DNA from: a virus
Virus record (IMG/VR): IMGVR_UViG_3300022744_000001
Span: 2,022 to 66,021 of that record
Direction: 5' to 3' (one strand)
DNA length: 64,000 bases
The position numbers and the translations under genes are program-made. Below the pieces are notes generated by a model, which had not been told where the DNA came from, ran no database searches, and saw nothing but the letters and a program-made list of their open reading frames with translations. Shown in pieces: positions 1,642 through 27,100 of the stretch (position 1 is the first letter of the stretch; every line of letters starts with the position of its first letter).

Positions 1642-1645
1642 GAAA

Positions 1646-3429: not shown

Positions 3430-3488
3430 GTGTTCCTCTCTCTACGGGCCGCACGAAAAGAGTAGCGCACCGAAGTGCACCCTCGAAA

Positions 3489-3573: not shown

Positions 3574-3576
3574 ATA

Positions 3577-4028: not shown

Positions 4029-4077
4029 GAAATTCGCTAATCTACGTCTTGGTACCTGTCCGGAGACAAGTGAAACT

Positions 4078-4152: not shown

Positions 4153-4154
4153 AT

Positions 4155-4242
4155 TGGTGGAGGATGATGGAGTCGAACCACTCAGCCTTAATGACGCCTC
4201 GTTTACAGCGAGACCTGCCTCCCGGGGCACACGTCACCCTCC
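4155..4242 (-). tRNA. tRNA-Tyr (anticodon GUA), class II
   Basis: 88 nt. Acceptor GGAGGGU/AUCCUCC, anticodon arm UCUCG-CUGUAAA-CGAGG, long variable arm as in bacterial tRNA-Tyr, T-loop UUCGACU, ACCA end. Confidence 0.75.
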
Positions 4243-7682: not shown

Positions 7683-10600
7683 GCATGCTGTACAGCTGCT
7701 TCCCGATGCTGAGCCCCACAAGGTAGTTGTCCTCCCCAACGCCCGCCGCTTGAAGAGCCGACTCAGGATCAAGGCCATCCGTGGACACGGACACCGCGAC
7801 CTTTTGCATGAGCAGGTCGTACAGCTGCTCTTGCAGGGTTCCCGCATAGACGGGGAACAAGAGGCGCGTTTCCTTGTCCTGCCCGATGCGGTCAATACGC
7901 CCGCCCGCCTGGCGGAAAATCACCGGGTTGCAAGCAGGGTTCTCCATCCAAATTTCCGTGGAAAAATGGACAAGATTGTTGAGGCCCGTTTGAATGGCCA
8001 CCGGGTTCACGACCAGGATGCGGCGCTTTTTCTTGACGATCTCCCTCGTGATCCAGTCCTGGCGCTTGGCCGTGGGAACCTTGTCCGCGTGCAGGATCGG
8101 GGCCTTTTCCTCCGTGTACTTCTCGAGGAGGGCCGACAGGCGCGGCAACAGGTTCGTGTGCCACGAAAAGACCATCACGTTCCGACCCTCGGCCAGCTCA
8201 TCCAGCACGCGGTCAACGAGCCACTGTTCCTTCGCAAGAAGGGTGTCCCTCGAGAACGGGGCTTGCGACGTGACCAGGTCGCCGCCGACCGACTCCGGAT
8301 AGCGGATCTCGAAATCGCCGCTCTCCACGTTGCCCGTGTCACTGGTCGCCCGGTCCAAGTAGCTCGGAAGCTCGGCAAGCTGCCCAAAGAGCTTGCCCGA
8401 CAGGTCTTCCTTGAAGCGGTCCCGCTTGATACGGTTGACAAGGGCCGTCTGCAACGCCGTGTAGCGCTTGGCCAGCTCTTCACCCGGAGCGACCAGATGC
8501 TTTTCCAGGGTGCACTTGGGCAGATCGATCGCTAGGTCGCTCTTGTGCAACGTGACCGAGATGGGCAAAAGGTGCCGGAGCAGGAAGAGCGGAAGGATGC
8601 CCGGAGCGTCCCCAATCATGCGCTCCGAGCGCTGGACACGATCCGAGTTCGAGCCAAATTCAATGACTTCCCCCTTCTCATCCTTGTCCTGCAAAAGGCG
8701 CTTGCGGTAGCCGTACCGGTCCACGAAGACCGAGCTATCGTCACGGCTGAACTCTTCACGGAATGCGGGCGAAAGAGCCCACATATTCATGAACAGGGAC
8801 TTGGCGTAGCCGTTCATGATCGAGCCGGTTTGAAGGATCGTGGGGATGCCGAGAGACGTCAACCGGTGAGCGGAGATCTCCTGTGCCGAGCCCTCCGTGG
8901 CGTACTCGTGCCCTTCATCGAGCACCAAGAAGTCGAACAGGTCTGGGTAGCGTTCCTTGATGTGTTGAGCCAACGCAACACGGCGAGGCTCCGGAACCGC
9001 CTGATAGAGGTGCTCCCCGCACTCTTCCGACGTCTCGAACCGCGCCACCAAGGCGGCCGAGCGGAGCGCGTTGATCCCCGTGGTCAACCCGTTGCCACGG
9101 CTCCCGTGAACACGAAGCTCCCCGCCGAACCACGAGACCACGACCGAGCCCACCAAGACTTGCTCGTTCTCTTTGGTCACCCGTTCCGCGTTGTTCTTGA
9201 GCACCTGGACCGGAGACCACGACGAGTGCGCGTGCGGGTAAGCCTTAGCCACCTCCGCAAAAGCCGCCGCCTGAACCGGACCCCCCGGAGGCAGGAGCAA
9301 GAGAAGGTCCCGAGCGAAGCTCGAGTACGCCCCGTGACTATCCACCGGGCCCAGCTCCCGCCAAACGCTCACGATCTGCTCAGGAGTCCCGGCCGCGGCG
9401 AGCGCATGGGCCAAAGCCGACTTGACCGCGTCCCCCTGGTGTTCCTTGTACGCCTCGACCAGGAGGCCGATCATATCGTCCAGCTCCCCCGCCTTGAAGC
9501 CAGAGAACACGGGAGGCTTGACCCCATCCTTGAGCTTGGATTCGTAGTGGGTGAGAAACTTCTGGCTCATCCGCTCAGACAAGATCGAGGTCAGGGTGCC
9601 GCTAGTAGGCTTGTGCTTAGCCAGCCGAATCGCCCACTTCTGAACGAGCCGAGCAAGCTCGTTTGCGGAGGTCACCGCCCCGTGCTTGCACCGGGCCCGC
9701 TTTTTGGCCAGGTCCACGACGGGCGTCGTGTGGCCGCACTTGGGGCAACGACCGTTACCCACACCTTCCCAGCCGTGCGAGAGCTTGGCTGTCTCACGCG
9801 AAAGGATGGCGATCACCATCCGGTCACTCGTGTTGGTCGCGACCGCTTCGATGTCCGAAACCGAGGACAGAACCCGAACCTCAGCCTCGGGCACCACCAC
9901 CGCGATCTCGTCCGCCCACGACTTGAGCAAGTGCGGAGGACACATCACAAGGAGCCGACGAACGCCAACCGTCTTGGCTGTCATCAGGGCGACCGTGGTC
10001 TTGCCCGAGCCGATCTCGCCGAGCAGGATTGCACCCTTGCCCTTGCGCTGGGCTCGAGTCGCATTGAGGCCGCCCAGGAGCTTGACCAAAGCGCGCGAGG
10101 CATGGGCCTGGGCCGTGAACAGCTTGCGGGGCGACGAAGCGAGCGGGATGGAGGCCGCATCCCGACGAGGGTCGTACAGGATCGGGCACTGCCGTTCCAT
10201 GACGCCCATGAGAGACTTGCCGTAGTGCTTGAGCAGGTCTGCCACAGTCATGGTTTCGACTGCGACTTTCCCCTTGGTCTCCGACCCCGAACCCAACACG
10301 TGGTACTTGTGGGTTTCCATGTCGAGCACGGTCACAACCAGCTTGGGCTGTTGAACCTGCACAACGCCGACCACATCGCCATCCTTGTTGGTCTTTTCCT
10401 CGACCGTACGGTACTCACGATCAAAGACGCCCTTGACGAGCAGAGGCGGGAGGACCCCGGGCACGTCCGGATCGATACGCGACCCGTTGAAGAGCCCCGA
10501 CGCGATACCAGCCGCGATGTGGGCCGGGCGCGGGGGCGTCGCCACTGGGTAGCGGCGCAAAAGCAGGTCCTGGACAGGTAGAGCCGGAAGGACACCCGAC

Positions 10601-11412
10601 ACCGGGATCTTCTGGCCGCCACGGCTCGTCTGAGTCCAAGGGCGAGCCTTGCTCAGGAGCGTGGTCAGGTCCACGGGCCGGATCTGCCAGCTACCAAGCC
10701 CCGTCTCGTAGTATTCGCCCGTCGGCAGGGTGTACAAGGGCGCGGAGCCCTCTTCTGGCAGCTCCGGAATGCTCGAGGCATCCGCCGCCCAGCCTTGAAC
10801 CTGGGTCACGATGGCCGCGTCAGGCGTAGCAATTGGGTCGCACTTGCGGGCAACCAACACGACTTGCTTGAACCCCTCGAAATCAGCCCCGGGGAACCGG
10901 AAACACTGGACGTTGACGAACTCCCGCCCCAGAAGCTCCACCGAGGCGGCAAGGGCGTAGAAGGGTACAACGAACATGAGCACGCCGCCCGTGGCCAGGA
11001 CGGCCGCAAAGCGGGCCAGGAAACGATGCTCGAGGCGACCATGCACCCGGTCAGTGTCATAGGGCGGGTTCAGGTAGAGAAGCCCGATTCCCTTGCGGCG
11101 GTCGAAATCCCACACAACGCGGAAAGCATCGCCATGGAGGGCGTTTTGACCCGATGTGTAGCTGAACCGAGACAGGTTGGCTTTGGCCGCCGCCGCTCGG
11201 ATCGCTTCCATCTCGCAGACGTACACTTCACTGCTTGCAGCCTGGAGGTGCTCTTTGATGGCCAGGATCGCCGCCGCGTCGCCCGCACAAGGGTCAGCGA
11301 ACGATGTCCGCGCCTCTTTCCCCACCGGCGAGAGAAGGCCCGCGATACGCGGAAGAAGATGGGTCGGGGTTGGGTAATACCCCGCGACTGCTATGGATTC
11401 AGGGCGTGCCAT
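7612..11412 (-). CDS. N6-adenine DNA methyltransferase fused to SNF2-family helicase
   Basis: 1266 aa. The N-terminus has AdoMet motif FADPCAGDAAAIL followed by catalytic LNPPYD. The C-terminal part has GEIGSGKTTVAL (Walker A), LVLDEGHEY (motif II) and QAGGRIDRIGQ (motif VI). A CPKCGH...C zinc ribbon lies between. Confidence 0.85.
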   Translation of the reverse strand: MARPESIAVAGYYPTPTHLLPRIAGLLSPVGKEARTSFADPCAGDAAAILAIKEHLQAASSEVYVCEMEAIRAAAAKANLSRFSYTSGQNALHGDAFRVVWDFDRRKGIGLLYLNPPYDTDRVHGRLEHRFLARFAAVLATGGVLMFVVPFYALAASVELLGREFVNVQCFRFPGADFEGFKQVVLVARKCDPIATPDAAIVTQVQGWAADASSIPELPEEGSAPLYTLPTGEYYETGLGSWQIRPVDLTTLLSKARPWTQTSRGGQKIPVSGVLPALPVQDLLLRRYPVATPPRPAHIAAGIASGLFNGSRIDPDVPGVLPPLLVKGVFDREYRTVEEKTNKDGDVVGVVQVQQPKLVVTVLDMETHKYHVLGSGSETKGKVAVETMTVADLLKHYGKSLMGVMERQCPILYDPRRDAASIPLASSPRKLFTAQAHASRALVKLLGGLNATRAQRKGKGAILLGEIGSGKTTVALMTAKTVGVRRLLVMCPPHLLKSWADEIAVVVPEAEVRVLSSVSDIEAVATNTSDRMVIAILSRETAKLSHGWEGVGNGRCPKCGHTTPVVDLAKKRARCKHGAVTSANELARLVQKWAIRLAKHKPTSGTLTSILSERMSQKFLTHYESKLKDGVKPPVFSGFKAGELDDMIGLLVEAYKEHQGDAVKSALAHALAAAGTPEQIVSVWRELGPVDSHGAYSSFARDLLLLLPPGGPVQAAAFAEVAKAYPHAHSSWSPVQVLKNNAERVTKENEQVLVGSVVVSWFGGELRVHGSRGNGLTTGINALRSAALVARFETSEECGEHLYQAVPEPRRVALAQHIKERYPDLFDFLVLDEGHEYATEGSAQEISAHRLTSLGIPTILQTGSIMNGYAKSLFMNMWALSPAFREEFSRDDSSVFVDRYGYRKRLLQDKDEKGEVIEFGSNSDRVQRSERMIGDAPGILPLFLLRHLLPISVTLHKSDLAIDLPKCTLEKHLVAPGEELAKRYTALQTALVNRIKRDRFKEDLSGKLFGQLAELPSYLDRATSDTGNVESGDFEIRYPESVGGDLVTSQAPFSRDTLLAKEQWLVDRVLDELAEGRNVMVFSWHTNLLPRLSALLEKYTEEKAPILHADKVPTAKRQDWITREIVKKKRRILVVNPVAIQTGLNNLVHFSTEIWMENPACNPVIFRQAGGRIDRIGQDKETRLLFPVYAGTLQEQLYDLLMQKVAVSVSTDGLDPESALQAAGVGEDNYLVGLSIGKQLYSMLTEFENVVAPVAQRPKQGRRKVA

Positions 11413-11656
11413 TGGCCTTCACCTTATCGCGGTAGATTTCAGCACAACTGACACAGGTGTGGTCGAGGTGTTTCTCCGTGATCGGAACCTCAAGATCCCA
11501 ACCCTGCCCCGCCTTCGGGTGACCACAAAGAGCCGCGGTCTGGATGCCGCCCCCGAACTTGAGGGGCATGCCTTCCGAAACCGGTCGGATGTGCCAACGA
11601 GCCAACGGCCCCGCATGGATACTCTCACAGAAGGAGTAGGTAACCTTGTTCGACAC
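11399..11656 (-). CDS. hypothetical small Cys-containing protein (85 aa)
   Basis: Its stop overlaps the start of the helicase gene by 14 nt, consistent with an operon. Contains HTCVSCAEIY. No family recognised. Confidence 0.5.
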   Translation of the reverse strand: MSNKVTYSFCESIHAGPLARWHIRPVSEGMPLKFGGGIQTAALCGHPKAGQGWDLEVPITEKHLDHTCVSCAEIYRDKVKANGTP

Positions 11657-11701
11657 TTGAACCTCTACCCCTAGAACGTGCGAGCCCCAGAGAATCTATA
11701 C

Positions 11702-12523
11702 TCAGACGTGCTCGAAAAACAACGACACCTGCTCAGCCAGGACTTGCTCGATCTGGGCATGGTTCGCACTGAAGGCTACACCTCGGCTGTAGCCCAAGGT
11801 CTCGGCGCGCTCGACACGGAACCCGAGCCGGGATGCCTCCCCGAAAGGAGGCGAGCCGTAGTGATGGCCCGAATTTGGGTAGGAAGCGAGCCCCTGCCCC
11901 AGGCAGGCGATGAGAAGCTGTAGGTAAAACCGCCCGTCCTGCAAGATGGGGCACCGAGTCCGCCGATCCAGGTAGGCCACGAACAGGAAAGCCGTGGGCA
12001 CGAGCTTGGCCAACGCCTCTTCGGACAGGGCCTCAGCCTCCCGCGCCTTCTCAGGCAGCATGGCCCGAACGTGCTGAACGATGGGACCCACCTCCACCCG
12101 CTGCTGAGCAGCCCACGTATCGGTAGGCAGCACGATGAATTTCGCCCCGGCCGGATCCACCATGCCAGGCTCCAGCTCGAACAGCTCAGGCAGGAAAAGG
12201 GTCGCAATTGTGCCCTCCGCCTCTTTCTGCCAAGTCACCTTGAACCCGCTCGACTTCAAGACCTCGAGCCGGTCTTCCTTCTTGCGGTACGAGTGGTCTT
12301 TCTGGGTGAAAGCCGCCTTGCGCCCCGACAGCAGGTTCATGACGAAGGGGCGTAGCTCAGCTTCCGACCCCGCAAAGGACACGTGCACCGGCCGAACGTT
12401 GTCCGTGTCGGTCGCGCCACCCTCCCACAAGGCATCCGCCTCGACCAAGGTCAGGCACGAAGCCGAGAAGGATCTGGACTTCCCCTCTTGTTGCGGCGCG
12501 ATGACGATTTCACGGTGGTTCAT
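11702..12523 (-). CDS. hypothetical protein (273 aa) between the two methyltransferase genes
   Basis: ATG ORF on the same strand as its neighbours with tight spacing. No motif recognised. Confidence 0.6.
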   Translation of the reverse strand: MNHREIVIAPQQEGKSRSFSASCLTLVEADALWEGGATDTDNVRPVHVSFAGSEAELRPFVMNLLSGRKAAFTQKDHSYRKKEDRLEVLKSSGFKVTWQKEAEGTIATLFLPELFELEPGMVDPAGAKFIVLPTDTWAAQQRVEVGPIVQHVRAMLPEKAREAEALSEEALAKLVPTAFLFVAYLDRRTRCPILQDGRFYLQLLIACLGQGLASYPNSGHHYGSPPFGEASRLGFRVERAETLGYSRGVAFSANHAQIEQVLAEQVSLFFEHV

Positions 12524-12578
12524 TTCCCAGACAAACTACTAGGTATTTGACTACCTGGCAATAGGGTAGACCGTAAAT

Positions 12579-14231
12579 TCAATCGTCGGATAGCGCGAGG
12601 TCGAGGATGGAGGTCTCGTTTTGGTCGATGGGTTTGGGTACCTCTACCGGGGCGGGTGGAGGTGCTGACTCCGCTCTCTTTTCGGGGCTTGAGGCTTCGA
12701 TGATGCGGTATTGTGCTCGAGCGATGTACCCCTCGTGCTTCTCGATGGCCACGAAGTTCACCCCCTCGAGAATGGCTGCCACGGCCGTTGTGCCCGAACC
12801 CACGTAGGGGTCGAGGACCACGCCGCCCGGGGGCGTCACGAGGCGCACTAGGTACCTCATCAGCTTGAGAGGCTTCACCGTCGGGTGCTGCTCCGCTCCC
12901 TCGACATCGACCTTCTCCGACGAGGGTGCTTTCGCGCAATAGGTGAACGGGGCATCGGGCTCGAATTGGGCGAAAAAGCGGGAGGCCCCGCCGGAGTCTC
13001 CGCGAGCAATAAAATAAACAGCCCCCTCAAAGGATCGACTTGACCCTCCGCCATGCGAGGTAAGAAGTCCGCTTTGATCATCCAGCTCTTTGCTCGGGCA
13101 CCCAGGGGCGCACTCGTAGACCGGGACTTGCTCTTCCCCGTTCTCATCTCCCGTCTGGGTGCTTGTGTACTCGTGCCCAGCCCCCTCACCAAAGGGTTTC
13201 ATGCCGTCGTCGAACCGGTTGATCACCGGGGCCTTGACCCTCTTGGTACCTACGACTTTGCACCCGTCGCTGTGCACGAGGATGAAGTTCGCAGGCCAAC
13301 GACCCAAAGCCTCAGCCTTGGCAACTTTGGCCGCCATGTCCTGCTTGTAGTCGTCTTTGCGGCCCTCATCGTGCATCCAAGGGCGGTCCCACTCGGGACC
13401 ACCGCACGTGTTGGTCATGTCCGTAGGGCCGCCGAGCCGACCGCCACCCAGAGCGTCGTTTGTCCTGACCCGACACCCGTCGATGTTGATCGCCCCCGTG
13501 CCCGTCGCGAGCACCTGGGCCACCACGGACTTCTCCGCAATGGGCTTGCGGAACACGAGGATGGGCTCCCAGCTCGGCTTCAACGCCGTGCCCCAGCCCT
13601 CCCACTTTTTCGCTTCCTCAGTCGCGGGCTCCGTAACCGGAATGTCGATGCCCACCTGCTTGGCCCCGACCCCATAGGCCCCCACGCCTTTACCGCCCTC
13701 ATCGGTCGTCTGCCGGACCTCTTTACCGTTCACGATGTCATTGAGGTTCTCGCCCCCAACGCCACGCTTGGTACCCACGACCTTGCGCTTGGCCCCCTTC
13801 TTCTTGTCGATGGCCTTGTCGATGCTGTGGGACTTCGGGAAGCCCTGCGACTGCACCCACTGCATGACGCTTTGAGGTCCAAACTGGGTTGCAATCGTGT
13901 CGCGGTTCTCGAACCCCGCCATGCGAATGCCCATCGACATGAGGTCGAAGGTTCGAGTGCCCGCGAACGCGAGAAGATGGCCCCCGGGCTTGAGCACGCG
14001 GAAGCACTCCTTCCAAACCGAGACGGGCGGGATGTCCCACGGCTTGTTCATGAAGTCGCCCGTTTTCAGCTCCGCGCCTTGAAGGTAGGCGATGAGTTCT
14101 TCGGGCGTCGGGTGCTCGTTTCCAAGCCCGTACGGCGGGTCGGTACAGATGGAATCAACCGACTCGTCTGGTAGGGTTTTGAGTATGGCTAAGCAGTCGC
14201 CATGATGCAGGGTGTTCAGCTCGAGGGACAT
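12579..14231 (-). CDS. DNA methyltransferase (beta-order N6A/N4C type) with large insert
   Basis: 550 aa. N-terminal catalytic motif CTDPPYG and C-terminal AdoMet motif VLDPYVGSGTTAVAA. GRWPAN and HPTVKPLKLMRYL blocks are present. A ~250-aa insert lies between the motifs. Confidence 0.85.
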   Translation of the reverse strand: MSLELNTLHHGDCLAILKTLPDESVDSICTDPPYGLGNEHPTPEELIAYLQGAELKTGDFMNKPWDIPPVSVWKECFRVLKPGGHLLAFAGTRTFDLMSMGIRMAGFENRDTIATQFGPQSVMQWVQSQGFPKSHSIDKAIDKKKGAKRKVVGTKRGVGGENLNDIVNGKEVRQTTDEGGKGVGAYGVGAKQVGIDIPVTEPATEEAKKWEGWGTALKPSWEPILVFRKPIAEKSVVAQVLATGTGAINIDGCRVRTNDALGGGRLGGPTDMTNTCGGPEWDRPWMHDEGRKDDYKQDMAAKVAKAEALGRWPANFILVHSDGCKVVGTKRVKAPVINRFDDGMKPFGEGAGHEYTSTQTGDENGEEQVPVYECAPGCPSKELDDQSGLLTSHGGGSSRSFEGAVYFIARGDSGGASRFFAQFEPDAPFTYCAKAPSSEKVDVEGAEQHPTVKPLKLMRYLVRLVTPPGGVVLDPYVGSGTTAVAAILEGVNFVAIEKHEGYIARAQYRIIEASSPEKRAESAPPPAPVEVPKPIDQNETSILDLALSDD

Positions 14232-14255: not shown

Positions 14256-15548
14256 TCAGTGCCCGCGAAGTTTCGCTTCCCAAGCCTCACGGCAATAGAG
14301 GGCGATGACACTGGGGGAAGCCTGCACAGCGGACATGCTCTTCTTGAGAATGGGGGTCCGGTTGCCCATCACCAGCTCGATGTCCACCTTGTCCCCGAAC
14401 TTGATCTGGACATTGAGGTTCGCATCAAGGTCCTGGTCGGGCAGGATCGGGCTGCTCTTCAACCACACGCGGATCGACCACGTGTCACTTTGCTGGCGAG
14501 GCGACCCGTAATCCCAGTTGAGGAAGCCCGAGACGTTCTCGTACTTCTCGACCCGGCTGAGTTCCTCGTGCAGGGAACGAAGCTGGTTGTTGAGGTACTC
14601 CCCCAGAACGCTCATGAACGTGGACTGGAGCGTAATGAGCTGCGCTTCGTAGTTGAGGCGAAGGACGCTCGAGGGCTCGAGCGCGGTCTTGACCACCAGG
14701 CTGGCAGCAATGTCCTGAGTCGTCTCCGACGCAGTCAACGTGTCCGCCTCATCCAGATCACGCACGTGAAGCGAGGCGGTCTTGAGTTCACGCTTGACCG
14801 TCTCGATGATCTCTTTCTTGTACTTCGTCCAAGCGCCCGGGGTGAACGACGACCGGTCATGCAGGAACGGAAGCATCTTCTGGGAGATGATTTGGCTGTC
14901 CGAGTAGTCCTCGCTGATCAGGTGCAGGTACGTACGAACGTCCTCTTCCGTGATCCCCGCATCCGGCCACTGCCGCTGAATCGCCTTGGCCGCCTCAATC
15001 GCCGCGTGGTCAATCTCCGACTCCGACGCTTCCCCAGGGCCGGAGATGAGGTCCCCCATGTCCGAGAGGTCGTTCTTCACCACGCCACGCTGGCGAACTT
15101 CCTGCCTGCGGTAGGAGTCGCGAAGGTGGTTGATCAGAGTCGTTCGAAGAAGCCTTTGGGCCTCGTCGTAGGTCTTGCCTTCCCAGTGCAGCATGCCTCG
15201 CTTGGCTTTGTCGATGAGCATGCCCATGGCTTCAACCAAGAAGTCCTGGGCCGCTTCTTTGCCCCCCACGTTCTTGATTGCCCACTTGAGCGCCGAGATG
15301 CCGACTTCCCGCCCGTACGTCGGAGGCACGTGGCGGTTGTCGATCTGGCGGATGTTCTGCGGGGGCGTTGCAAGCGGAGGCAGCTCCGTAACGCCCAGGA
15401 GATGGAAGAGCCCCATCGCCACCTGGCCAAAACCATCCGCAACCGACGTGACCGCGATGCGAAGGTGGAAGTACATATTGGCAGTACGTACGCTCCACGG
15501 AGAAGTAGAGGCAGTCCTGCGGAGGAGGTCGGTGGTGAGGTCGAGCAT
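14256..15548 (-). CDS. hypothetical protein, weakly sigma-70 region-2-like
   Basis: 431 aa from ATG 15548, 24 nt downstream of the upstream stop. Segments AAQDFLVEAMGML and TLINHLRDSYRRQEVRQR resemble sigma regions 2.1-2.4. Otherwise unrecognised. Confidence 0.5.
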   Translation of the reverse strand: MLDLTTDLLRRTASTSPWSVRTANMYFHLRIAVTSVADGFGQVAMGLFHLLGVTELPPLATPPQNIRQIDNRHVPPTYGREVGISALKWAIKNVGGKEAAQDFLVEAMGMLIDKAKRGMLHWEGKTYDEAQRLLRTTLINHLRDSYRRQEVRQRGVVKNDLSDMGDLISGPGEASESEIDHAAIEAAKAIQRQWPDAGITEEDVRTYLHLISEDYSDSQIISQKMLPFLHDRSSFTPGAWTKYKKEIIETVKRELKTASLHVRDLDEADTLTASETTQDIAASLVVKTALEPSSVLRLNYEAQLITLQSTFMSVLGEYLNNQLRSLHEELSRVEKYENVSGFLNWDYGSPRQQSDTWSIRVWLKSSPILPDQDLDANLNVQIKFGDKVDIELVMGNRTPILKKSMSAVQASPSVIALYCREAWEAKLRGH

Positions 15549-15571
15549 CACTTCGGCGATGAATAAGAAGA

Positions 15572-15817
15572 TCAGTCGGGGTCTGACTGCCCCGTCGTCT
15601 GTTGCCAGAGCTGGTCTCGAGCCCGGAGCTTCTTGATCTCCGCCACGCACCAGGCCAGGTGGTTGTCGTGTGCCTCGTCCTCGATGCGACCCGTGCCGCT
15701 ACAAGTCGGGCAGGTCCCTTCCGGCTGCCCATACGGACCCAGATAGCCCTCCCCGCCGCAACGGGGGCAGTCAACGGCGAGGAGGGCTTGGATAGCGGGG
15801 AGCCGGTCGTCACTCAT
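15572..15817 (-). CDS. small DnaJ-type CxxCxGxG zinc-finger protein
   Basis: CPRCGGEG and CPTCSGTG repeats. 81 aa. The start overlaps the upstream stop by 4 nt. Confidence 0.6.
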   Translation of the reverse strand: MSDDRLPAIQALLAVDCPRCGGEGYLGPYGQPEGTCPTCSGTGRIEDEAHDNHLAWCVAEIKKLRARDQLWQQTTGQSDPD

Positions 15818-16881
15818 CCGGTGTGGGCCTGGAGCACCTTGGGTCGAATGTTCATCTTGCGAGCCACATCCTGGATGGACTTGCCCGCATCGAACATCTC
15901 GATGACGTCGTTCTCGTTCTCAGGGGTGGACTCGTCGGGGTCGCCGCTACCGGCGAGGTACTCGACCGTCATCTTCAACTCGACGATAGACTCCTGACGT
16001 GCACCGAAGGGGTCACCCAAGGTGTCCTCCCACGCGCGACCCGTCGCCTCGTCGTTGCCCTTGTACTGCTCCTGGTAACGACGCGAACGGGTCCGGCACC
16101 AGTTGGCGTAGATGTTGTGCACGCTGCGCGCGAGATACTGCTTGAACAAGGACTTGGAGAGTACCGAGGCCGGGTCCGCGTTCGGATCCACCGCGTTGTC
16201 CTTCTCGTACTCGAGCACGAGTTTGAGGCGCTCGACGTCCTCGCGATCGTACATGGCAGTTCGGCTCGCCCAGCTGCCCTTGGCAGGCACGGGATACCAG
16301 CGGAACAGGGCCGCCTTGAGGCCGCGGCGTTTTGCACAGAAAACACAAAGGGTCTTCGCCCCCGTGTTGCCCTCGTCCGCGACCCAATAACGCTGAGGAA
16401 GCGAGTCGAGGTCGAGACTTTTCCTCAGCCTGTCCACAACCACCGGGAACACGTCCGGGTTGTTCTGGCGGAGGTGCTCGAGGGAGGCCGCGAACTTGAC
16501 CGTGTCGCACCCGCAGGAGCCGCACACGCCCTTCTCACGACGGTAGATGTCTACTCCGAGCTTCTCCTTCATGGCGCCCCTGTGCACGCGCTGGAGGAAC
16601 GTGAACCACGAGATACGAAGGTAGCTCGCAGCCTGAGCGCCGGTGAGCTGCTTGGGCAGGTGCCCCAGCGAAGCCCGGTGCTTCTCGATGACCCTGTTCT
16701 CGAAGAGCTTCATCCACACGTGTTGGAGAAGATCGTCGAAGTTCGAGTTGACCCGGTTGTGCCTCGTGACGAGACGAGCAACGTAGGTGCCGTAAACACG
16801 AACGAGGTCTTTGTTGTCAACAGGAATGTAGTCGTCCTGGTCAACCAAACCCGTGTCGTTCGCCACTGCCGATGCAAGCAT
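15814..16881 (-). CDS. sigma-70/ECF-like factor with ~200-aa Cys-rich insertion
   Basis: Region-2-like YVARLVTRHNRVNSNFDDLLQHVWMKLFE. Region-2.4-like LFKQYLARSVHNIYANWCRTRSRR. Region-4 HTH-like DVIEMFDAGKSIQDVARKMNIRPKVL. The insert carries CGSCGC and CVFC. Confidence 0.5.
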   Translation of the reverse strand: MLASAVANDTGLVDQDDYIPVDNKDLVRVYGTYVARLVTRHNRVNSNFDDLLQHVWMKLFENRVIEKHRASLGHLPKQLTGAQAASYLRISWFTFLQRVHRGAMKEKLGVDIYRREKGVCGSCGCDTVKFAASLEHLRQNNPDVFPVVVDRLRKSLDLDSLPQRYWVADEGNTGAKTLCVFCAKRRGLKAALFRWYPVPAKGSWASRTAMYDREDVERLKLVLEYEKDNAVDPNADPASVLSKSLFKQYLARSVHNIYANWCRTRSRRYQEQYKGNDEATGRAWEDTLGDPFGARQESIVELKMTVEYLAGSGDPDESTPENENDVIEMFDAGKSIQDVARKMNIRPKVLQAHTG

Positions 16882-16989
16882 GCAGTCCCCCTATGACCAG
16901 CCTCAGCTCCCCTATTTACCCCGCGGGAGCGCCCCAGAGGGGACACCTTTAGCTGATCTGGCGAACACCCGTCAAGGTGTATTTGAGGG

Positions 16990-17601
16990 TTGGACTACAT
17001 GCGTAGGAGAGTATCGGTGGAATGCCCAAACCTCATATCCCATGAGGACCTCCCTGATATCCACGGAGATGTGGAAAGTGTGCTTGCGGAGATGGAAGCC
17101 CAGCGGGTTTTTTTCGACGCGAGCCTTGGTCTAGTTTCAAGCGAAACCGTAAGCGAAACAGCCATTTACGCCCTACGTGTCCGAAGCCAGGACGAGTCCC
17201 TTATCGACCGCCTCACCACCTTTTGTCTATGGCATAGTGTGGGGAGGGTAAAGTTCGACCTTATCCCACATAGGTGGTCACGTTCCACACGGTGGGCGAA
17301 ACGTACAACGGAAGACCTCATTACCTCTTGGATGAGGTGGGTTGCACACGAGGACACGGAGGCCGTTACCCACGCCCTTCATCGGATGGAGCGCGATCGC
17401 GAAGATGCCTCCATTGAGGCACTGCCCCTTCAATATTGGGCAACCGCGATTCAAGCGCTGACTCAATCGGACCAGTTGACCTCGAAACGCTTTTTTGAGC
17501 GTGCCATGGAGGTCTCCTCACAATTCGGTTTCCCGTCCAACCCGCCTATCTGCTGGACGTACGCGCTCAGTTTTCTCCCTCGAGAGCCTCTTTGCGTTTA
17601 G
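16990..17601 (+). CDS. hypothetical protein (203 aa) in lower-GC island
   Basis: ORF with visibly lower GC than the flanks. No family recognised. Confidence 0.4.
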   Translation: MDYMRRRVSVECPNLISHEDLPDIHGDVESVLAEMEAQRVFFDASLGLVSSETVSETAIYALRVRSQDESLIDRLTTFCLWHSVGRVKFDLIPHRWSRSTRWAKRTTEDLITSWMRWVAHEDTEAVTHALHRMERDREDASIEALPLQYWATAIQALTQSDQLTSKRFFERAMEVSSQFGFPSNPPICWTYALSFLPREPLCV

Positions 17602-17935
17602 ACCCTCGGCGATAGCCCGCCAAAAACAACCGGTTTCTCCACGCATGGCCAGGAGGATAGGGGCGAAGGATTTCCTCCAACTCCCTCTCCGCTTGCCCCT
17701 TTGGCCATCCCGCTTGGATGTACGGCCGCCCCGTTTGGCGATCGTAGATAGCCCAAAGCGGAACGCTTTCAACCTTTTGCGTCCGATTTACGCCTCCGCC
17801 CGGAGGGCGTCGGCCAAAATGACTTGGTTTCGGGAGCCATGGCTTCTCAAGAGGCTCTTCTGAGCCTTCACCCTCATTGAGGCTTGACAAGTCCTCGGGA
17901 TCTCCAAGAAAGCCCTCTTCGTCTTCTGGCTTCAT
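17567..17935 (-). CDS. hypothetical protein (122 aa)
   Basis: ATG ORF with an acidic N-terminus and basic C-terminus. Convergent overlap with 16990..17601. Confidence 0.4.
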   Translation of the reverse strand: MKPEDEEGFLGDPEDLSSLNEGEGSEEPLEKPWLPKPSHFGRRPPGGGVNRTQKVESVPLWAIYDRQTGRPYIQAGWPKGQAERELEEILRPYPPGHAWRNRLFLAGYRRGSKRKEALEGEN

Positions 17936-18162
17936 GAACGCTAGTACACCTCGGTTGGTACCCTTTTGGATGTAACCAACCCTCCATCAGGCGCTCCCTC
18001 GCAAGGAACCCTTCCAGATCTCAACCTCCCCTATGGAGGCCCTTTACCAATGAACCCTATGGTTCTCGCTCCATCCCCTGGAGCCCGTTACCGTTTACCG
18101 TACCTGTTGCTTCTACTGTACCTGCATCGTCATCTACTAGGGGTGCATCTTCTGTATCTGCT

Positions 18163-18216
18163 ACGGTTACTGAATCATCTACGGTTACTGAATCATCTAC
18201 GGTTACTGAATCGGTT
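18163..18216. repeat. 18-bp tandem repeat, 3 copies
   Basis: ACGGTTACTGAATCATCT at 18163-18180 and 18181-18198, and ACGGTTACTGAATCGGTT at 18199-18216. Further ACTGA(A/G)TC boxes extend to about 18260. Confidence 0.9.
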
Positions 18217-18295
18217 ACTTCTGAATCTACTGAGTCTGGATCTACTGAATCATCATCTGAGTCTGTTTCGGTTTTTTGTTCCTTAGCTTCACTAC

Positions 18296-18390
18296 TGATC
18301 CCCTAACGGGGATCATATGGATCAAATTAAGATCCTTAAGGATCTAGATCTAGTAGGGATCCATATTGAGCTACTTCGTATCCGGGGATC
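18296..18390. promoter_or_regulatory. GATC-dense palindromic AT-rich segment
   Basis: 8 GATC sites, starting at 18297, 18311, 18320, 18331, 18341, 18347, 18358 and 18387. Hairpin TGATCCCC-taac-GGGGATCA (18296-18315). Palindromes GATCCTTAAGGATC (18331-18344) and GATCTAGATC (18341-18350). Confidence 0.6.
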
Positions 18391-18470
18391 AGAGGGGCTA
18401 CTACCTTCTGTCGCCCGTTACCCAAGGGGTGGTTCCTAAGATCCGATTGCTTCTCTTAGGAGCAGAGCCT

Positions 18471-19028
18471 ATGGGACGGTTCTCGAGAGATACAAACGTG
18501 TCCTTCTCGAGCCAAGGTAACCGGGTCTTTTCTGCTCGCTATGGTTCCAGGGAAGCTCCTGGTAGCGGGATCGATCCGGAGACCGATCGAGGGACCCTAT
18601 ACCCTCACCCCCTTGGACACTTTGGGGGCTGTGACGGACTAGAACACCGAGGGGGACAGGTCAATGGGAAAATTCTCCTATGCCGCCTCTGGGGTAAGAG
18701 GAGCATGGTACCAAGCATCGTTACCTTCTCAGACGTAAAGGACGCTCCTTCTATCCGCATGGAGCTTCCAGCTCTCTTGCCTCTTGGGGAACGAATCAAG
18801 CTCCGGGTGACCCTCCGAAGGAAAAACGGGCACCGTACCGAAGAGCTTCGGGTGGATGGCGAGTACAGGGTCGCAGAGACCTCTGTGGACGCCACGTACG
18901 CCCCTCCCAAGCAGATCGTGAAGGTAGAGGCCACCAAGGTCGCGCCCGCCTGGAAGGCGGTGCGTAACCCCTCCCCGCTTCGTCGGCTCCTCCCTCCCAC
19001 TCACTCGAAAGCGGTCCTAGACGAATGA
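18471..19028 (+). CDS. hypothetical protein (start ambiguous)
   Basis: ATG 18471 lies 8 nt after AGGAG. An in-frame ATG at 18705 follows AAGAGGAG and would give a 107-aa product. The C-terminal half looks more protein-like. Confidence 0.45.
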   Translation: MGRFSRDTNVSFSSQGNRVFSARYGSREAPGSGIDPETDRGTLYPHPLGHFGGCDGLEHRGGQVNGKILLCRLWGKRSMVPSIVTFSDVKDAPSIRMELPALLPLGERIKLRVTLRRKNGHRTEELRVDGEYRVAETSVDATYAPPKQIVKVEATKVAPAWKAVRNPSPLRRLLPPTHSKAVLDE

Positions 19029-19324
19029 TGAACCCGTTCCTCCCGAAAGAGTTCCTGTCCCTCCCAGAAGCCATCTGGGTGCCAAGGCTAGGGCCGAGGG
19101 TCTTCCGGGGGGCCGCAGCCGAGATCGTCCTCCAAATGGCTTCTATGAAGGGCCCACGACCCTCCACGGTGAAGCTGGCGCTCCGGCACCTGGTCGAGGA
19201 TATGTCCTCGACCAATCGCATCCGCGTGAAGATCCCCTGGGAGCAACCCGAAGCCGCCCTCGCTCGAGCATTTCTCCGAGCACTCCTTCAAGCGGGTCTC
19301 TGTTTGCCAGTTCCTTCTGCGTAG
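19025..19324 (+). CDS. hypothetical protein (99 aa)
   Basis: ATGA start-stop overlap with the upstream gene. TAG stop. Confidence 0.5.
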   Translation: MMNPFLPKEFLSLPEAIWVPRLGPRVFRGAAAEIVLQMASMKGPRPSTVKLALRHLVEDMSSTNRIRVKIPWEQPEAALARAFLRALLQAGLCLPVPSA

Positions 19325-19381
19325 GTTGTGCACGGTGTGCGGTTGTACTGAGTGTGCAAGCGGCCCGGTGTAGAGGGCTCC

Positions 19382-20095
19382 ATGCACCAACATGGCGTCC
19401 TCTCCGGCTACGAGATCGAGAAACAGCTCAAGGAGGGGCGAATCCAAATCGACCCCTTCAACCCTGACCACGTGAACCCCGCCTCCGTGGACCTCACTCT
19501 GGGGGATCAGGTTCTGGTCTACCGAGACGCGATCGACTACGAGGAGTACGACGTTACGGACGGGAGCGAGATCATCCCCTCCTTGGACAAGAACGTTCTC
19601 GACAGTCGGCAACCCAATCGCACGGTCAGCTACAAGATCGGGCCTCGCGGCTGGGTCCTCAAGCCGGGCGTCGGGTACCTCATGCACACGGCTGAGCGCG
19701 TCTTCACAGAGAGCTTTGTCCCCGTCCTCGATGGCAAGTCCTCGGTAGGGCGGCTCTTCATCAAGGTGCACGAGACGGCCGGGTATGGCGACCCAGGCTT
19801 CAACGGCCAGTACACACTCGAGGTGACCTCCGTTTACCCGGTCCGGGTCTACACGGGCATGCGCATCTGCCAGGTTCGCTTCCACTCGATTGCAGGCCAG
19901 CCGAAGCTCTACCAAGGGCACTACCGGAACGATACGGCCAAGGGTGCCGTGGCCTCCAGGTCCTGGCAGCAGTTCGAGGAGATGGACGAGGCAGCAGTGG
20001 AGCGGCGAATGCTCGAGTGCAAAGAGGACCATGAGGCCGTCCGCCGCTCCGGCTCCGATGACGGCTGCCTCAAGTGCGGCTACTACGCGAAGTAA
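19382..20095 (+). CDS. dcd: dCTP deaminase family protein with C-terminal extension
   Basis: NPASVDLTLG and GKSSVGRLFIKVHETAGYGDPGFNGQYTLEV are Dcd/dUTPase-fold signatures. About 60 extra C-terminal residues end in CLKCGYY. Confidence 0.85.
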   Translation: MHQHGVLSGYEIEKQLKEGRIQIDPFNPDHVNPASVDLTLGDQVLVYRDAIDYEEYDVTDGSEIIPSLDKNVLDSRQPNRTVSYKIGPRGWVLKPGVGYLMHTAERVFTESFVPVLDGKSSVGRLFIKVHETAGYGDPGFNGQYTLEVTSVYPVRVYTGMRICQVRFHSIAGQPKLYQGHYRNDTAKGAVASRSWQQFEEMDEAAVERRMLECKEDHEAVRRSGSDDGCLKCGYYAK

Positions 20096-24189: not shown

Positions 24190-27100
24190 TCAGGCCGGTA
24201 CATGGGGCATGATCCACCAGTTGGTCCCGTCGCAAGCTGCATGGAATCCTTGGCGCCCAGATGCCCCGAATGCAACACCGGTAGTGGCCAAAGTTCCGTT
24301 GATGTTTCCGGAGCTGGATTTCAATGTGAAAGTGTTGCTATCCGTGGTGGTCTTCATGAGTGTAAGAGAGTGTCCACCGCTACTAGCAGGTGCAGGCAGC
24401 TGAATGTTTGCGATAGCTCCGCCTGATGTGTCGATCATAGTAAACGCGCCAGAAGACAGAGTTCCGCTGCCTCCGAGTGAGTCTACCTTTGAAAGAATGA
24501 TGGCTCCATACCCAACGCCGAACCCGGACCCGGGCCGACGCCCCACATAGAGGTCTACTGAGTTTGTGGTTAGAACTGCGGTGCCTGCTGCTGGGGCGAT
24601 AACCACTGCGCCGTGGTCGCCAGAGCCAGCAGGGGCGCCCGTGGTCAGCGTGATGTCTCCGCCGTTCTGGTTGCCGCCGACAGCCGAAGTTGCTGTGATG
24701 TTGACCGCGCCGCCGACCCCAGAAGTGGCTGTGGTGCCCGCAGAGATATTTACGGTGCCACCAACACCATTGGCGTTGTTGGCGCCTCGGACCGTGACCG
24801 AGCCAGCGGTTCCAGACCCGGTTGAGACACCGCCTGCGATAGTGATGCTTCCACCATTTTGGTTGCTTCCAGCAGCTGCACCCGCGGTAACGACGATGGC
24901 GCCACCTGTGCCTGAACCGCTAGCAGCACCAGCAGTGATAGTGACTTGGCCGCCAGCCCCCGAGGTTGAACCGCCAGCCCCCGCAAGGAGCAGAGCAGTA
25001 CCTCCGCTACCTGTAGCGCCTCCAGCTCCCGCACGAAGGGACGCGCCACCTCCCCCAGAAGAGCCTCGGCTGCTGCCTGCGGTGAAACTGATATCTCCAC
25101 CGGCGCCGGACGTAGCAGAAGCATTCGCGCTGCCTCCTGTAGCGGTGAAGCTACCGCCGTTGCCGCTACCAGTGCCGCCGGTACCTCCAGTGAAGGTAAA
25201 GGAACCGCCGACACCAGTTTGACCAGCTCCACTCGAGGCCGCTCCCGCGTTGAATGTGAAGCTTCCGCCGTTGTTGGCGCTCAAGCTTCCACCGCTGCCG
25301 CCAGTGAAAGTGATCGAACCGCCAGAGCCGCTCGATGTGCTGCCACAAGTGAGGGCGATGGAGCCACCAGCACCCGATGTTGAAGCGCCCGCAGTGATTT
25401 GAAGGGCTCCGCCAGCACCAGAGGTAGAACCGCCCACGCCTGAGAACAGCTGGAGAACAGCACCTGCTCCCGTTGCGCCCGAGGTACCGGGTTGAACCAG
25501 AAGGGCGCCCGCCGCCGAAGCACCGAAACCATCACCGGTTCGAATCGTGGTGGTTCCGCCAACCGCCGACGAACCGCCAGAGACGGCATCCGCCCCCTTG
25601 ATGGTTACAGAGCCTGCTGTGCCGCCGTTAGTCGGGGAGCCACCCGTGATGGTGATTGCACCACCAGCTTGAGTGGTACCTACGCCCGCTCCGCCCGTGA
25701 TGGAGAGGGCTCCGCCAGCACCAGACGTCGTAGCTGCACCACCCTGGAGAGAAAGGGTGCCTCCAGCTCCAGAAGTGGCACCACCAGGACCGCCTTTGAC
25801 GACTACCGAGCCGCCCGTGTTGGTACCTCCAGGAGTGCCGCCTTGGATGGTGACTGTGCCACCGTTACCCGCGGCAAGAGAGGTGCCTCCGTTGATGTTG
25901 AGGGCACCACCAGCACCGGTCAGGCCCCCGGTACCTCCCTGTGCTGTCAGGGAGTACCCAGTTCCAGCTCCGACAAGATCGGCAGGTTTGATAGTCGGGG
26001 AGGTGCCAGTGGTAACAACCACCCCGCTATCAATCAATGCTGTAGCCGCCGAGCTACTCCAGACGGGGACCCCGTTGGTGTTCCCAGAACCTGGGCCTGT
26101 GACCCCGCCCCCACCTCCGGTTCCTCCAAGAGGGAGCACTCGCCACGCGTTGCTGGTGTAGTCCCGCACTAGCAACGCCGCAGAACCACCAGTCAGGGAG
26201 TAATCGGTTGCCGAAGGGCAAATAAGCCGATTGAATGCAGACGATCCAGCATCTTGGTGTTTGAGGGTCAGTGTCGTACTGGAGCGGTTTACAAGGAAAC
26301 GCTGTGAGTAGGACAGGTCGAGGTCAGTGTCGCGGAAGAAGCCCGTAACGGTTGCACCCGAAGTGACCGCATCAAAAAAGATCGTCCGCGCAAAACGCCA
26401 CTTGTAGATGTCTCCAAGCTTGTAGTCGTTGTTGGTGCCGCTGACCGAGACCGACGCGGTCTGCTCGATGGAGGGGTAAGTGAAAAGGTTGTCACTCGTC
26501 CCGCCAAAGTTGTTGTTCGCGAACTTCGAAGCGTTGTTGTTCGTTGCGTCGGTAGTGACAGGATTGTTGAACAACACGATTGAGGCCGGGGCACCGTCGT
26601 CAACCAAGTACCCAGAGGTTCCGACGTTCGCGTTGAAGATCTGAAGGTACCCTCCGTTGGTAATGAATGGGTACCCTGTGATACCTGCCAACCAAGTGCT
26701 TGCTGGGAATTCACAATAGACGTCGAGCGATCCGCCATTGCCTGCATTAATCCACGAAGACGTTGCGGCCCCATCGGTGTAGAGCTGGGAAAATCTCCCC
26801 AAGGTAATCGAGGGGTAATCGCTGGGGCTCATCGTATAGAGGGCCCCAGACGTCTTGTGGTTGACCATCACTACGTTTTCGATTCGACGAGGCAGCTTAA
26901 CGATGACCGCGGGGTCATAGAAGTTCATGACCGCTGTGCCGAGAGGATCTGTTGACGAGCGGCCAACGATCTCACAGTCCGTGAAGTCAAAGGAGTTGCT
27001 ACCGCTAAGGGGTACATTCGTAAGCAGCGTGATTCGACACGGGCCAGGGTGCCTTGCTGCAAGAAGCAGAGCCATGTCGTTATACGTGTTGCCCGAAGGT

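Follow-up and report, generated by a model that had tools for sequence, protein, structure and literature searches.

Direct repeats beside an AT-rich block of very high GATC density are found in the replication origins P1 oriR and Escherichia coli oriC, the latter with 11 GATC sites in 245 bp. Clustered GATC sites whose state could gate protein binding also occur in the Dam switches of pap and Mu mom and in P1 pac, which hold 2-7 spaced sites. Among RNAs, GOLLD, ROOL, and other long RNAs of tRNA-rich phages extend over several hundred nucleotides, contain many covarying helices, and have no known function. To our knowledge, few large structured RNAs exist, and new biology has so far come out of every class discovered. 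In long cis-regulatory leaders such as riboswitches, ribosomal-protein leaders, and phage csRNAs, the structure ends at the first ribosome-binding site of the operon, in the same orientation. The phage csRNAs are positioned upstream of conserved genes and the survey that covers them includes 10,006 unnamed candidates (PMC10690425).

The locus described here shares features with each of these systems. It is contained in a 64,000-nt window (the whole stretch of DNA analyzed) that is part of a ~448-kb jumbo phage and combines direct repeats with eight GATC sites in 94 bp, as in oriR and oriC, and a conserved clustering of GATC, as in the Dam switches and pac. It also spans several hundred nucleotides with many covarying helices and palindromic segments that could self-pair, in a tRNA-rich phage and with no known function, as for GOLLD and ROOL, and its structure ends at the first ribosome-binding site of the downstream operon in the same orientation, as in the leaders. 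In contrast to GOLLD and ROOL, the element matched no Rfam model even at permissive thresholds and is situated directly upstream of an operon, not beside a tRNA array; compared with typical leaders it is much larger (~420 nt or more) and no known aptamer was recognized in it. We know of no hypervariable repeat tract or GATC-selected arm, both present in the element, described for GOLLD or ROOL. A description of the element was not found in the literature and it matched no described RNA family in Rfam 15, the 10,006 unnamed candidates of the csRNA survey (PMC10690425) being outside this comparison. The stretch flagged as an origin or methylation-sensitive hub in the initial annotation has a probability of about one half of forming the 5' portion of a structured RNA or leader, not described before, that precedes the p107-dcd-pdf operon. 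Judged from sequence comparison, its repeats and GATC block look like two modules of a larger conserved element and not like an iteron origin.

Related phages were reached only via p355, dcd, and an alignment of p203; a similarity search of the window DNA against 50,697 GenBank phage records gave no match, and neither did single-protein IMG/VR scans with p122- and p107. The gene order mt550-p464-p355 <-> p203-GAP-p107-(p99)-dcd-pdf was kept in eight IMG/VR loci and more than ten metagenome lineages, with flanking-protein identities of only 35-65% among the element-bearing phages. The gap between p203 and p107 measured 0.6-1.2 kb in ~19 related lineages and its modules followed a constant order: first a T-rich tract that is hypervariable, then a conserved box and a perfect hairpin, and finally a long inverted repeat rich in GATC and ~330 nt of covarying helices. 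The conserved upstream flanking gene p203 (16990-17601, + strand; every relative has a homolog, of 35-66% identity, immediately before the element) was predicted to encode an all-alpha, TPR-like protein, whose AF2 model (pLDDT 83) gave weak TPR-like fold matches, none of them informative. The small gene p122- (17567-17935, - strand) between p203 and the element was confined to the subclade of the window, with tblastn homologs only in L011/L024/L034, L031, L035, and L047 and a weak codon signal.

On the downstream side, a ribosome-binding site (AAGAGGAG) and p107 (18697-19028, + strand) open the operon p107-p99-dcd-p158-pdf, in which dCTP deaminase and peptide deformylase were identified by Pfam. 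Homologs of the open reading frame 18366-19028 matched only from about residue 104-117, i.e., over its last ~107 residues, and the true start of p107 was therefore placed at the ATG at 18705. The p107 product was predicted to be all-beta, with a confident model and no informative fold match. Two genes beside the locus, p355 and p464, were weakly sigma-like. Scans of 16800-19200 identified no sigma-70 promoter-like site and one intrinsic terminator-like site, at 16959-16974, outside the element.

The 5' end of the element is marked by Box L (CTACTAGGGG, 18134-18143), the left border of the hypervariable tract, and similar CTACTA..GGGG(T)-like motifs start the tract in L007, L008, L009, and L011. 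The T-rich tract itself (18144-18284) contains the 18-bp tandem repeats on which the origin proposal had partly been built, and these were recovered by TRF at 18161-18212 (period 18, 2.9 copies, 100% match), followed by degenerate 15-nt repeats at 18220-18258. The window contains ACGGTTACTGAATC three times only, at 18163, 18181, and 18199, and the accompanying ACTGA(A/G)TC boxes were present at 18169, 18187, 18205, 18229, and 18244. The 18-mer was not conserved even in the closest relatives (L031 and L051-L053), and the tract position in relatives was occupied by repeats unrelated to it, with units of 6, 9, 15, or 21 nt. Repeat periods in the tract were mostly multiples of 3 (~22 of 25 TRF arrays), and the alignments of this region were too poor for reading indel phases. 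As assembled, two contigs otherwise identical over 20.6 kb differed in 18-mer copy number, with three in the window and two in an ENA contig (L001). The T-rich array appears to be a fast-evolving flank that grows and shrinks by slippage, not a group of conserved iterons for protein binding.

The tract is followed by Box R (AGCTTCACTACT, 18285-18296), conserved in all lineages, with variants of GCTTCACCACTA directly before the hairpin in every relative. The 8-bp hairpin noted earlier (P2, 18296-18315; TGATCCCC-TAAC-GGGGATCA) is present, and a perfect hairpin of 7-13 bp was found at this position in ~17 of 19 lineages, its stem sequence different in each clade. Next is a long inverted repeat (P3, 18315-18366), an addition to the initial annotation that forms the core of the GATC cluster, with outer arms ATATGGATC (18315-18323) and GATCCATAT (18358-18366) enclosing the GATC-rich palindromes already reported, GATCCTTAAGGATC at 18331-18344 and GATCTAGATC at 18341-18350. 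Comparable long-range stems were seen in relatives, each arm containing GATC and the two arms enclosing a variable insert rich in GATC, whose copy number differed between the close relatives L023 and L032. Box 3 (GAGCTACTT, 18368-18376) completes this part of the element, and G(A/G)G(C/G)TACTT follows the inverted repeat in nearly all lineages.

All of the GATC sites listed previously (18297, 18311, 18320, 18331, 18341, 18347, 18358, and 18387, plus 18239 and 18440) were present, and their excess over chance was substantiated: eight in 94 bp against ~0.37 expected (Poisson P(>=8) 6.5e-9), or P ~4e-4 once all positions in 64 kb were allowed for. The window-wide rate of 3.95 GATC per kb equaled the composition prediction, and no other 150-nt stretch of the 64-kb window had as many. 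The GC content was also lower, as claimed (0.45 over 18131-18470 against ~0.60 for the window), and fell to 0.39 at 18308-18335 against ~0.60 for the genome, in a segment made of palindromes and not of an A/T tract. At the homologous position, 78 GATC sites were counted in 16 x 150 nt from 16 lineages where ~17.6 were expected (~4.4-fold), and this site had the highest GATC density, alone or tied, in 10 of the 16 loci. The two halves of the original observation therefore fared differently among relatives: all of the related phages inspected had a GATC cluster at the corresponding site, and the 18-mer was replaced by unrelated repeats. Because of this recurrence, GATC itself appears to be under selection in the palindromic arm.

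Downstream of Box 3, the remaining ~330 nt show covarying helices, as a structured RNA would. This conserved multi-helix domain (18377-18696, + strand) would comprise a CCTAAG..CTTAGG hairpin (~18435-18460), a TCTCGAGA/TCTCGAG helix (~18481-18511), a TTTTC block (18528-18532), the nested helix CTCGCTA..CCAGG-GAAGCT-CCTGG..TAGCGGG (18535-18569), a TCGATC/GATCGA hairpin (18571-18590), and a CCCCC..GGGGG hairpin (18608-18628). For the other clades (A8), 90.3% of cells paired in the 3' domain compared to 25-50% in slid controls, and double compensatory changes occurred in 16 of 24 pairs, a result reached by 0 of 500 shuffles. For the subclade that includes the window (A10), 84.8% of cells paired versus 43-60% with partners slid, and 30 pairs had changes on both sides versus 8-14 in the slid controls, scores that are inflated, since the five sequences scored had also served to predict the A10 structure. 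The two-sequence consensus fold of the window and L031 reached -71 kcal/mol against -38 +/- 5 for column shuffles.

The + strand is indirectly favored as the transcribed strand by its better predicted fold (minimum free energy -174.2 kcal/mol, z = -4.4, versus -153.4 kcal/mol, z = -3.2, for the minus strand) and by an excess of G-U over A-C pairs in the modeled helices (24 versus 8), with the qualification that stable folds are predicted for either strand and that the G-U excess is only modest. With covariance models from two clades, the element was detected in another four lineages, in each case on the + strand (E 1e-6 to 6e-3). Three rounds with models from other clades at default filters did not detect the window's own copy, and with filters off this copy was the top match only within 900 nt (E ~0.1); therefore, the case for homology between its 3' domain and those of the distant clades depends on synteny, on the order of motifs, and on intermediate relatives. 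An all-clade MAFFT alignment of the 3' block misaligned the window. The models from clades A and B also gave a recurrent weak match elsewhere in the window, at 11608-11722 (- strand). Rfam searches returned no match at E<=1 in window positions 16800-19200, none at E<=5 in five relatives, and tRNAs only at the gathering score across eight loci.

The reading frames across the repeats were as the initial annotation had described them, with a Ser/Thr/Glu-rich + frame (17938-18303) devoid of ATG, GTG, and TTG and an acidic minus frame (18060-18302) bounded by TAG on both sides. A codon-usage scan of all frames over 17940-18660 gave no coding signal, and the acidic frame had a GC3 of 0.26 against ~0.78, with GTA for 12 of 12 Val and TCA for 7 of 9 Ser. 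Indels between the window and L031 from 18366 to 18704, upstream of the p107 ATG, were not multiples of 3. No open reading frame over the repeats had the ordinary features of a protein gene, as start codon, codon usage, and conserved frame were all lacking. Recoding of TAG as the cause of "missing" genes was rejected, since the standard code yields an uninterrupted 1000-aa gene and the flagged frames either include TAA and TGA stops as well or have no starts. A start-less tmRNA-like tag was discarded as well (ARAGORN found no tmRNA, Rfam gave nothing, and the tails of 7-130 codons shared no common C-terminus), as was a -1 frameshift joining the Box R GTG to the acidic frame, for which slippery heptamers such as A_AAA_AAC in L031 and C_CCA_AAA in L053 were not consistent across lineages.

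Several features of the tract are nevertheless those expected of a minus-strand protein gene that would start near Box R or the hairpin with the peptide motif S-G-E-A-E/K and continue into a hypervariable, acidic or Pro/Asn-rich disordered tail, the GATC block encoding its N-terminal or upstream part. The multiples-of-3 periods fit such a gene, as do the sole polymorphism between contigs of exactly 18 nt and a minus frame that is stop-free after the motif in all lineages; neither the periods nor this stop-free frame is explained by a purely noncoding model. Close relatives encode related residues (DSVTVDD in the window, DSVDDSEQVPD in L053, and PNPTV in L031 and L052), codons of the motif vary at the third position in a seemingly synonymous way (GGT/GGC/GGG and GCT/GCC), the upstream part is hydrophobic in L029 and L031, and the phage carries an amber-suppressor tRNA. 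Against this, in-frame ATG, GTG, and TTG codons are missing from ~8 lineages, the window among them, the frame stops after 7-10 codons in L029 and L023/L032, the long frame of L051, L029, L037, and L039 is a different one relative to the motif, and L051 and L053 differ by a 2-nt indel. In addition, the window frame consists almost entirely of codons that are the rarest in the phage and has a strongly negative codon-usage score, the low T content of the minus strand is in itself enough to make stops infrequent, and the gene caller of the source predicted nothing at the locus. A protein gene here is consequently regarded as unlikely.

Two explanations at the DNA level, an origin and a switch, build on the GATC cluster. 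Conservation of GATC in the arm without covariation points to DNA recognition and would be compatible with either. In a replication origin, the repeats would be lineage-specific iterons and the AT-rich GATC block the unwinding or sequestration region, as in oriC and P1 oriR, with a transcript possibly serving as primer or R-loop RNA; structured RNAs prime some phage and plasmid origins (ColE1 RNA II and T4 oriF/oriG). This is consistent with direct repeats accompanied by a 60-bp stretch of ~39% GC and the densest GATC cluster of the window, with the conservation of that cluster in relatives, and with the location in the lowest-GC 2 kb of the window. The iteron-plus-origin claim nevertheless lacked support on several points in which oriR and oriC differ from the element. 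Its repeats are unconserved (2.9 copies, where at least three direct repeats of ~17-22 bp conserved with an initiator among relatives were looked for), vary in sequence, length, and phase with 6-21 nt periods out of helical register, and change in copy number between near-identical genomes. DnaA-box-like sites were absent from 17078-19680, and no adjacent Rep or initiator gene was detected, as neighboring proteins had no Pfam, PHROG, or NCBIfam match to replication initiators, the predicted p107 and p203 folds were not initiator-like, and the neighbors are instead the TPR-like p203, the all-beta p107, and the weakly sigma-like p355 and p464. Within the 64 of ~448 kb available, GC skew was negative on both sides and cumulative skew kept falling through 18 kb with no V-shaped minimum, i.e., no skew switch. 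The GATC block is furthermore embedded in covarying helices, and we know of no iteron origin with such helices extending over ~330 nt. An origin is accordingly considered very improbable. A methylation-gated switch or set of protein-binding palindromes, with pap- or mom-type promoter control or P1 pac-like GATC-regulated cleavage, would instead treat the hairpin and inverted repeats as operator or cruciform DNA and not as RNA structure. The conservation of GATC as sequence in both arms and in an otherwise unalignable insert is what tetranucleotide recognition, and not base-pair covariation, predicts. Genome-wide, GATC in the relatives was at or above expectation (6-8 per kb), hence not counter-selected and compatible with methylation, and two weakly sigma-like genes adjoin the element. 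The earlier link to two methyltransferases at 7612-14231 is only inferential and stood in part: the gene 12579-14231 encodes a clear N6/N4 DNA methylase, whereas the product of 7612-11412 is not a clear methylase but a DUF6094 protein with weak matches to SNF2-type helicase families. One beta-class methylase (adenine/N4) was syntenic with the element in all relatives, resembling CcrM, DpnA, and PvuII-type enzymes only in catalytic and SAM-binding motifs. The arm may be under methylation control. Unlike pap, mom, and pac, the element lacks a nearby terminase gene and any neighboring partner of the Lrp, OxyR, or PacA type, and carries at least eight GATC sites in nested palindromes; its inverted-repeat arms are 35-100 nt apart, unlike operators, and the downstream covarying helices would go unexplained, though a switch could coexist with an RNA. 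As the whole explanation, a DNA switch is therefore unlikely.

The preferred reading of a structured RNA or leader would accommodate these modules as follows. The flagged ~18134-18376 would be the 5' part of a ~560-nt composite noncoding element (18134-18696) that this jumbo-phage clade keeps between p203 and the p107-p99-dCTP-deaminase-peptide-deformylase operon. We infer that the + strand is the one most likely transcribed, and that the transcript would fold into a large structured RNA acting as a long operon leader or as a separate noncoding RNA. Box R, the hairpin, the GATC-rich inverted repeat as an extensible stem, and Box 3 may constitute a first RNA domain, followed over ~330 nt by several further helices with predicted long-range contacts, among which a GUGUCC/GGACAC pairing is proposed. 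The most economical reading of the arm is that it is recognized as GATC, either in DNA, where adenine methylation would gate transcription into the element, or in RNA as self-complementary GAUC. More speculatively, and with odds clearly below even, the element may represent a new class of large structured jumbo-phage RNA of at least 450 nt, combining a triplet-periodic hypervariable 5' tract, a GATC/GAUC-selected palindromic arm, and a multi-helix core with pseudoknot-like long-range pairs. In such a class the arm would couple DNA adenine methylation to transcription or allow self-association through GAUC loops, and the element would regulate, or work together with, an operon for nucleotide metabolism and translation located beside phage sigma-like factors.

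These results remove a plausible but unsupported origin-of-replication annotation and identify an element joining three features seldom found together, namely repeats that evolve rapidly, a palindromic arm selected for GATC, and a core of covarying helices. As a source of large structured RNAs, jumbo phages have been little explored. If the element is an RNA, it would be a defined, testable regulatory element for an operon beside phage sigma-like genes, and should methylated DNA be the form in which the GATC arm is read, it would exemplify epigenetic control of genes in jumbo phages.

The repeat-bearing stretch is best described as the 5' part of a composite, conserved noncoding element (18134-18696, +) that is apparently RNA-forming and specific to a jumbo-phage clade. 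The window is part of a metagenomic contig of 448,224 bp, a length that indicates a jumbo phage. Successive genes leftward of the element encoded a beta-class DNA methylase, p464 (14256-15650, -), and p355 (15814-16881, -), the latter two with weak matches to the sigma-70 family (E 7e-4 and 2e-3) and to a LuxR/GerE-type HTH (E 9e-3); every relative kept both in synteny with the element, and they may be phage sigma-like factors. Next, on the + strand, came p203 (16990-17601), which overlapped convergently by 35 nt (17567-17601) at its 3' end with p122- (17567-17935, minus strand), a small gene confined to the subclade of the window; its absence from most relatives suggests that it was inserted between p203 and the element. 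A gene-free stretch separated p122- from p107, whose start was set by homolog comparison at the ATG at 18705 and which was followed in order by p99, dCTP deaminase (dcd), p158, and peptide deformylase (pdf). Two related loci (L026 and L035) carried a different minus-strand gene (ML(S/A)E(D/E)E..HEVTRIYSYALGT..) inserted left of the repeat tract at the place of p122-, which makes the site just past p203 an apparent hotspot of gene insertion. Eleven tRNA genes were clustered at 507-4239 (-; Arg x2, Ala, Glu x2, Thr, Asn x2, Lys x2, and Tyr), with similar arrays a few kb past the methylase in relatives. A 92-nt amber suppressor tRNA with anticodon CTA (33692-33783, +; labeled 'Pyl' by ARAGORN) had a long variable arm, discriminator G, and an encoded CCA end; since the standard code leaves the large genes of the window intact, TAG read-through, if it occurs, would be restricted to a few genes. 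The gene caller of the source also predicted a 1000-aa protein (24190-27192, -) with a long repetitive Gly/Ser/Ala/Thr-rich region and atypically low GC3.

No GenBank phage matched the window at the DNA level, and protein-guided searches identified the same neighborhood in eight IMG/VR jumbo-phage contigs (114-512 kb) and approximately 10 more metagenome lineages, with three closer relatives added via p107 homologs. The p203-p107 gap measured 0.6-1.2 kb in all relatives found and, read in the window orientation, every gap maintained an identical module order: (i) a short CTACTAGGGG-like box, (ii) a T-rich or GT-rich tract of 60-350 nt, (iii) a conserved box (box R), approximately GCTTCACCACTA, (iv) a perfect hairpin of 7-13 bp with a stem sequence differing clade by clade, (v) a long inverted repeat whose two arms contain GATC and enclose a variable, palindromic, GATC-rich insert, (vi) the box G(A/G)GCTACTT, and (vii) approximately 330-400 nt of conserved blocks and hairpins up to the p107 ribosome-binding site.

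All sequence features described in the initial annotation were recovered at their coordinates, and the repeats and GATC cluster are real and non-random. The low-GC island had a GC of 0.45 over 18131-18470, and no 2-kb stretch of the window was lower in GC than 17001-19000. TRF delimited the 18-nt tandem repeat at 18161-18212, with 2.9 copies at 100% identity, and degenerate 15-nt repeats continued to 18258. The hairpin TGATCCCC-TAAC-GGGGATCA (18296-18315) preceded the palindromes GATCCTTAAGGATC (18331-18344) and GATCTAGATC (18341-18350), both enclosed by a newly identified outer inverted repeat (ATATGGATC, 18315-18323; GATCCATAT, 18358-18366). Five palindromic six-base restriction-type sites (CATATG, CTTAAG, TCTAGA, AGATCT, and GGATCC, with TCTAGA in its sole copy within the window) were packed into 50 nt at 18314-18362, a polylinker-like arrangement but present as the same sequence in independent ENA and Logan assemblies.

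In the window, the hypervariable tract of module (ii) takes the form of the 18-mer array. This tract was unalignable across clades and strongly diverged even among 90%-identical relatives. Over 20.6 kb, the single difference between the window and the 448,224-bp contig (L001, ENA ERZ27252002 k141_47206) was one 18-nt unit (three copies in the window versus two in L001; 18161-18178), either a true VNTR or a short-read assembly effect, and a third, independent assembly (Logan contig L002) started inside the repeat. The interpretation of these repeats as iterons was not borne out, as the repeat sequence was unconserved in relatives, its copy number was unstable, periods varied by lineage (6, 9, 12, 15, 18, and 21 nt), and adjoining units were without helical phasing.

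The GATC sites (18297, 18311, 18320, 18331, 18341, 18347, 18358, and 18387, with two more at 18239 and 18440) lay exactly where first listed. As the GATC rate of the whole window (3.95 per kb) equaled the composition-based expectation, eight sites in 94 bp had a Poisson P of 6.5e-9 (approximately 4e-4 once every window position was allowed for), and no second 150-nt stretch in the 64 kb matched this density. The cluster was conserved, with the 150-nt segments immediately past box R (18285-18296 in the window) containing 78 GATC in total across 16 lineages versus approximately 17.6 expected from their own loci; this segment had the highest density of the locus, alone or tied, in 10 of 16 loci. 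The inverted repeat arms read (A)TGATC/GATCA(T) in most lineages, and the insert, which had grown by tandem duplication (a 21-nt unit 2.3 times in locus L023 and about once in L032), was GATC-rich throughout the lineages. Because this unalignable insert stays GATC-rich, the tetranucleotide seems to be selected as such, beyond any role in a helix. Relatives of approximately 50% GC (L004-L008 and L023-L039 loci) contained 6-8 GATC per kb versus approximately 3.9 expected, while the window was at expectation.

A covariance model built from two clades, comprising a block with a TTTTC motif and three helices, recovered the element in four further lineages (E 1e-6 to 6e-3), each time on the + strand at the syntenic place. 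In the 11-sequence alignment, standard pairs occupied 90.3% of cells versus 25-50% with partners slid by one to three columns, and both sides had changed in 16 of 24 pairs, values attained in none of 500 shuffles. The window subclade (window, L031, L051, L052, and L053; MAFFT alignment with RNAalifold consensus) gave 84.8% pairing versus 43-60% in slid controls and double changes in 30 pairs versus 8-14, figures inflated because the structure was derived from the very sequences scored. The + strand of 18283-18704 (422 nt) folded at -174 kcal/mol (z = -4.4; equaled by none of 100 dinucleotide shuffles) versus -153 kcal/mol (z = -3.2) for the minus strand, and the modeled helices contained 24 G-U versus 8 A-C pairs. 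A candidate long-range pairing read by eye, GUGUCC (18498-18503) with GGACAC (18615-20), had the compensatory counterpart AUGGCC/GGCCAU in another clade. Distant-clade models missed the window's own copy under default filters, and with filters off it was the best match within 900 nt only (E about 0.1). A recurrent weak match of the relatives' 3'-domain models at 11608-11722 (-; E about 0.003; UUUUUCGAGC...GCUCG plus GGUUACCUAC), straddling the junction of genes 11702-12523 and 11399-11656, could reflect either chance or a related small hairpin motif. No Rfam 15 family matched the element and ARAGORN found no tmRNA. In the accessible literature no description of the element was found, although it may be among the 10,006 unnamed candidate structured RNAs of an IMG/VR-wide survey (PMC10690425).

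A start-less minus-strand ORF over the tract was considered unlikely. Such an ORF would account for repeat periods divisible by three in about 22 of 25 arrays, for a conserved peptide-like motif (S-G-E-A-E/K) followed by a stop-free frame in every lineage, and for the akin acidic/Pro-rich residue patterns among close relatives. However, an in-frame start was absent in about eight lineages including the window, the ORF spanned just 7-10 codons in three lineages, the long frame was out of register with the motif in four, and two close relatives differed by a 2-nt indel in this region. The window frame used the phage's rarest codons nearly throughout (Val = GTA 12/12; GC3 0.26 versus about 0.78), and the minus strand is T-poor, which by itself makes stop codons rare. 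The three open frames across the repeats behaved as originally described, lacking G/C third-position bias, and a log-odds scan of codon usage, with the confident genes of the window as its training set, detected no coding signal in any frame over 17940-18660. Slippery -1 heptamers occurred on the minus strand just past box R (A_AAA_AAC at about 4760-4795 of L031; C_CCA_AAA then TAA at about 2495-2530 of L053), where a GTG/TTG-initiated frame would need to shift into the long acidic/Pro-rich frame, in a pattern inconsistent across lineages. The triplet periods and stop-free minus frame are left unexplained by a simple noncoding model.

An iteron origin, as proposed initially, is not the best-supported description of the stretch, and a replication origin was judged very improbable. 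Apart from the GATC density and an AT-rich stretch, the latter built of palindromes and not of an A/T tract, none of the testable origin-defining features was present; DnaA-box-like sites were absent within 17078-19680 and initiator-like proteins among the neighbors, where p203 was a helical repeat protein of TPR-like type and p107 was all-beta with no informative structural match. The suggested GC-skew check, which covered 64 of the approximately 448 kb, gave negative skew to the left and right of the locus, with cumulative skew falling past it until about 23-30 kb. To our knowledge, hardly any jumbo-phage origin has been described, and for this reason and because of the fraction of the genome covered, an origin kept a small probability. 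Selection on GATC would fit DNA recognition, by methylation or a GATC-binding protein, or self-complementary GAUC in RNA. The syntenic methylase resembled CcrM, DpnA, and PvuII-type enzymes in the catalytic and SAM-binding region alone, a resemblance that predicts no particular target site. A DNA-only methylation switch, compatible with a coexisting RNA, was considered an unlikely reading on a par with the ORF, and something outside the readings considered was given as little weight as an origin.

The favored reading, with a probability of about one half, is a structured RNA or leader with a GATC-selected arm, located immediately 5' to the p107-dcd-pdf operon and beside the sigma-like genes of this jumbo-phage clade.
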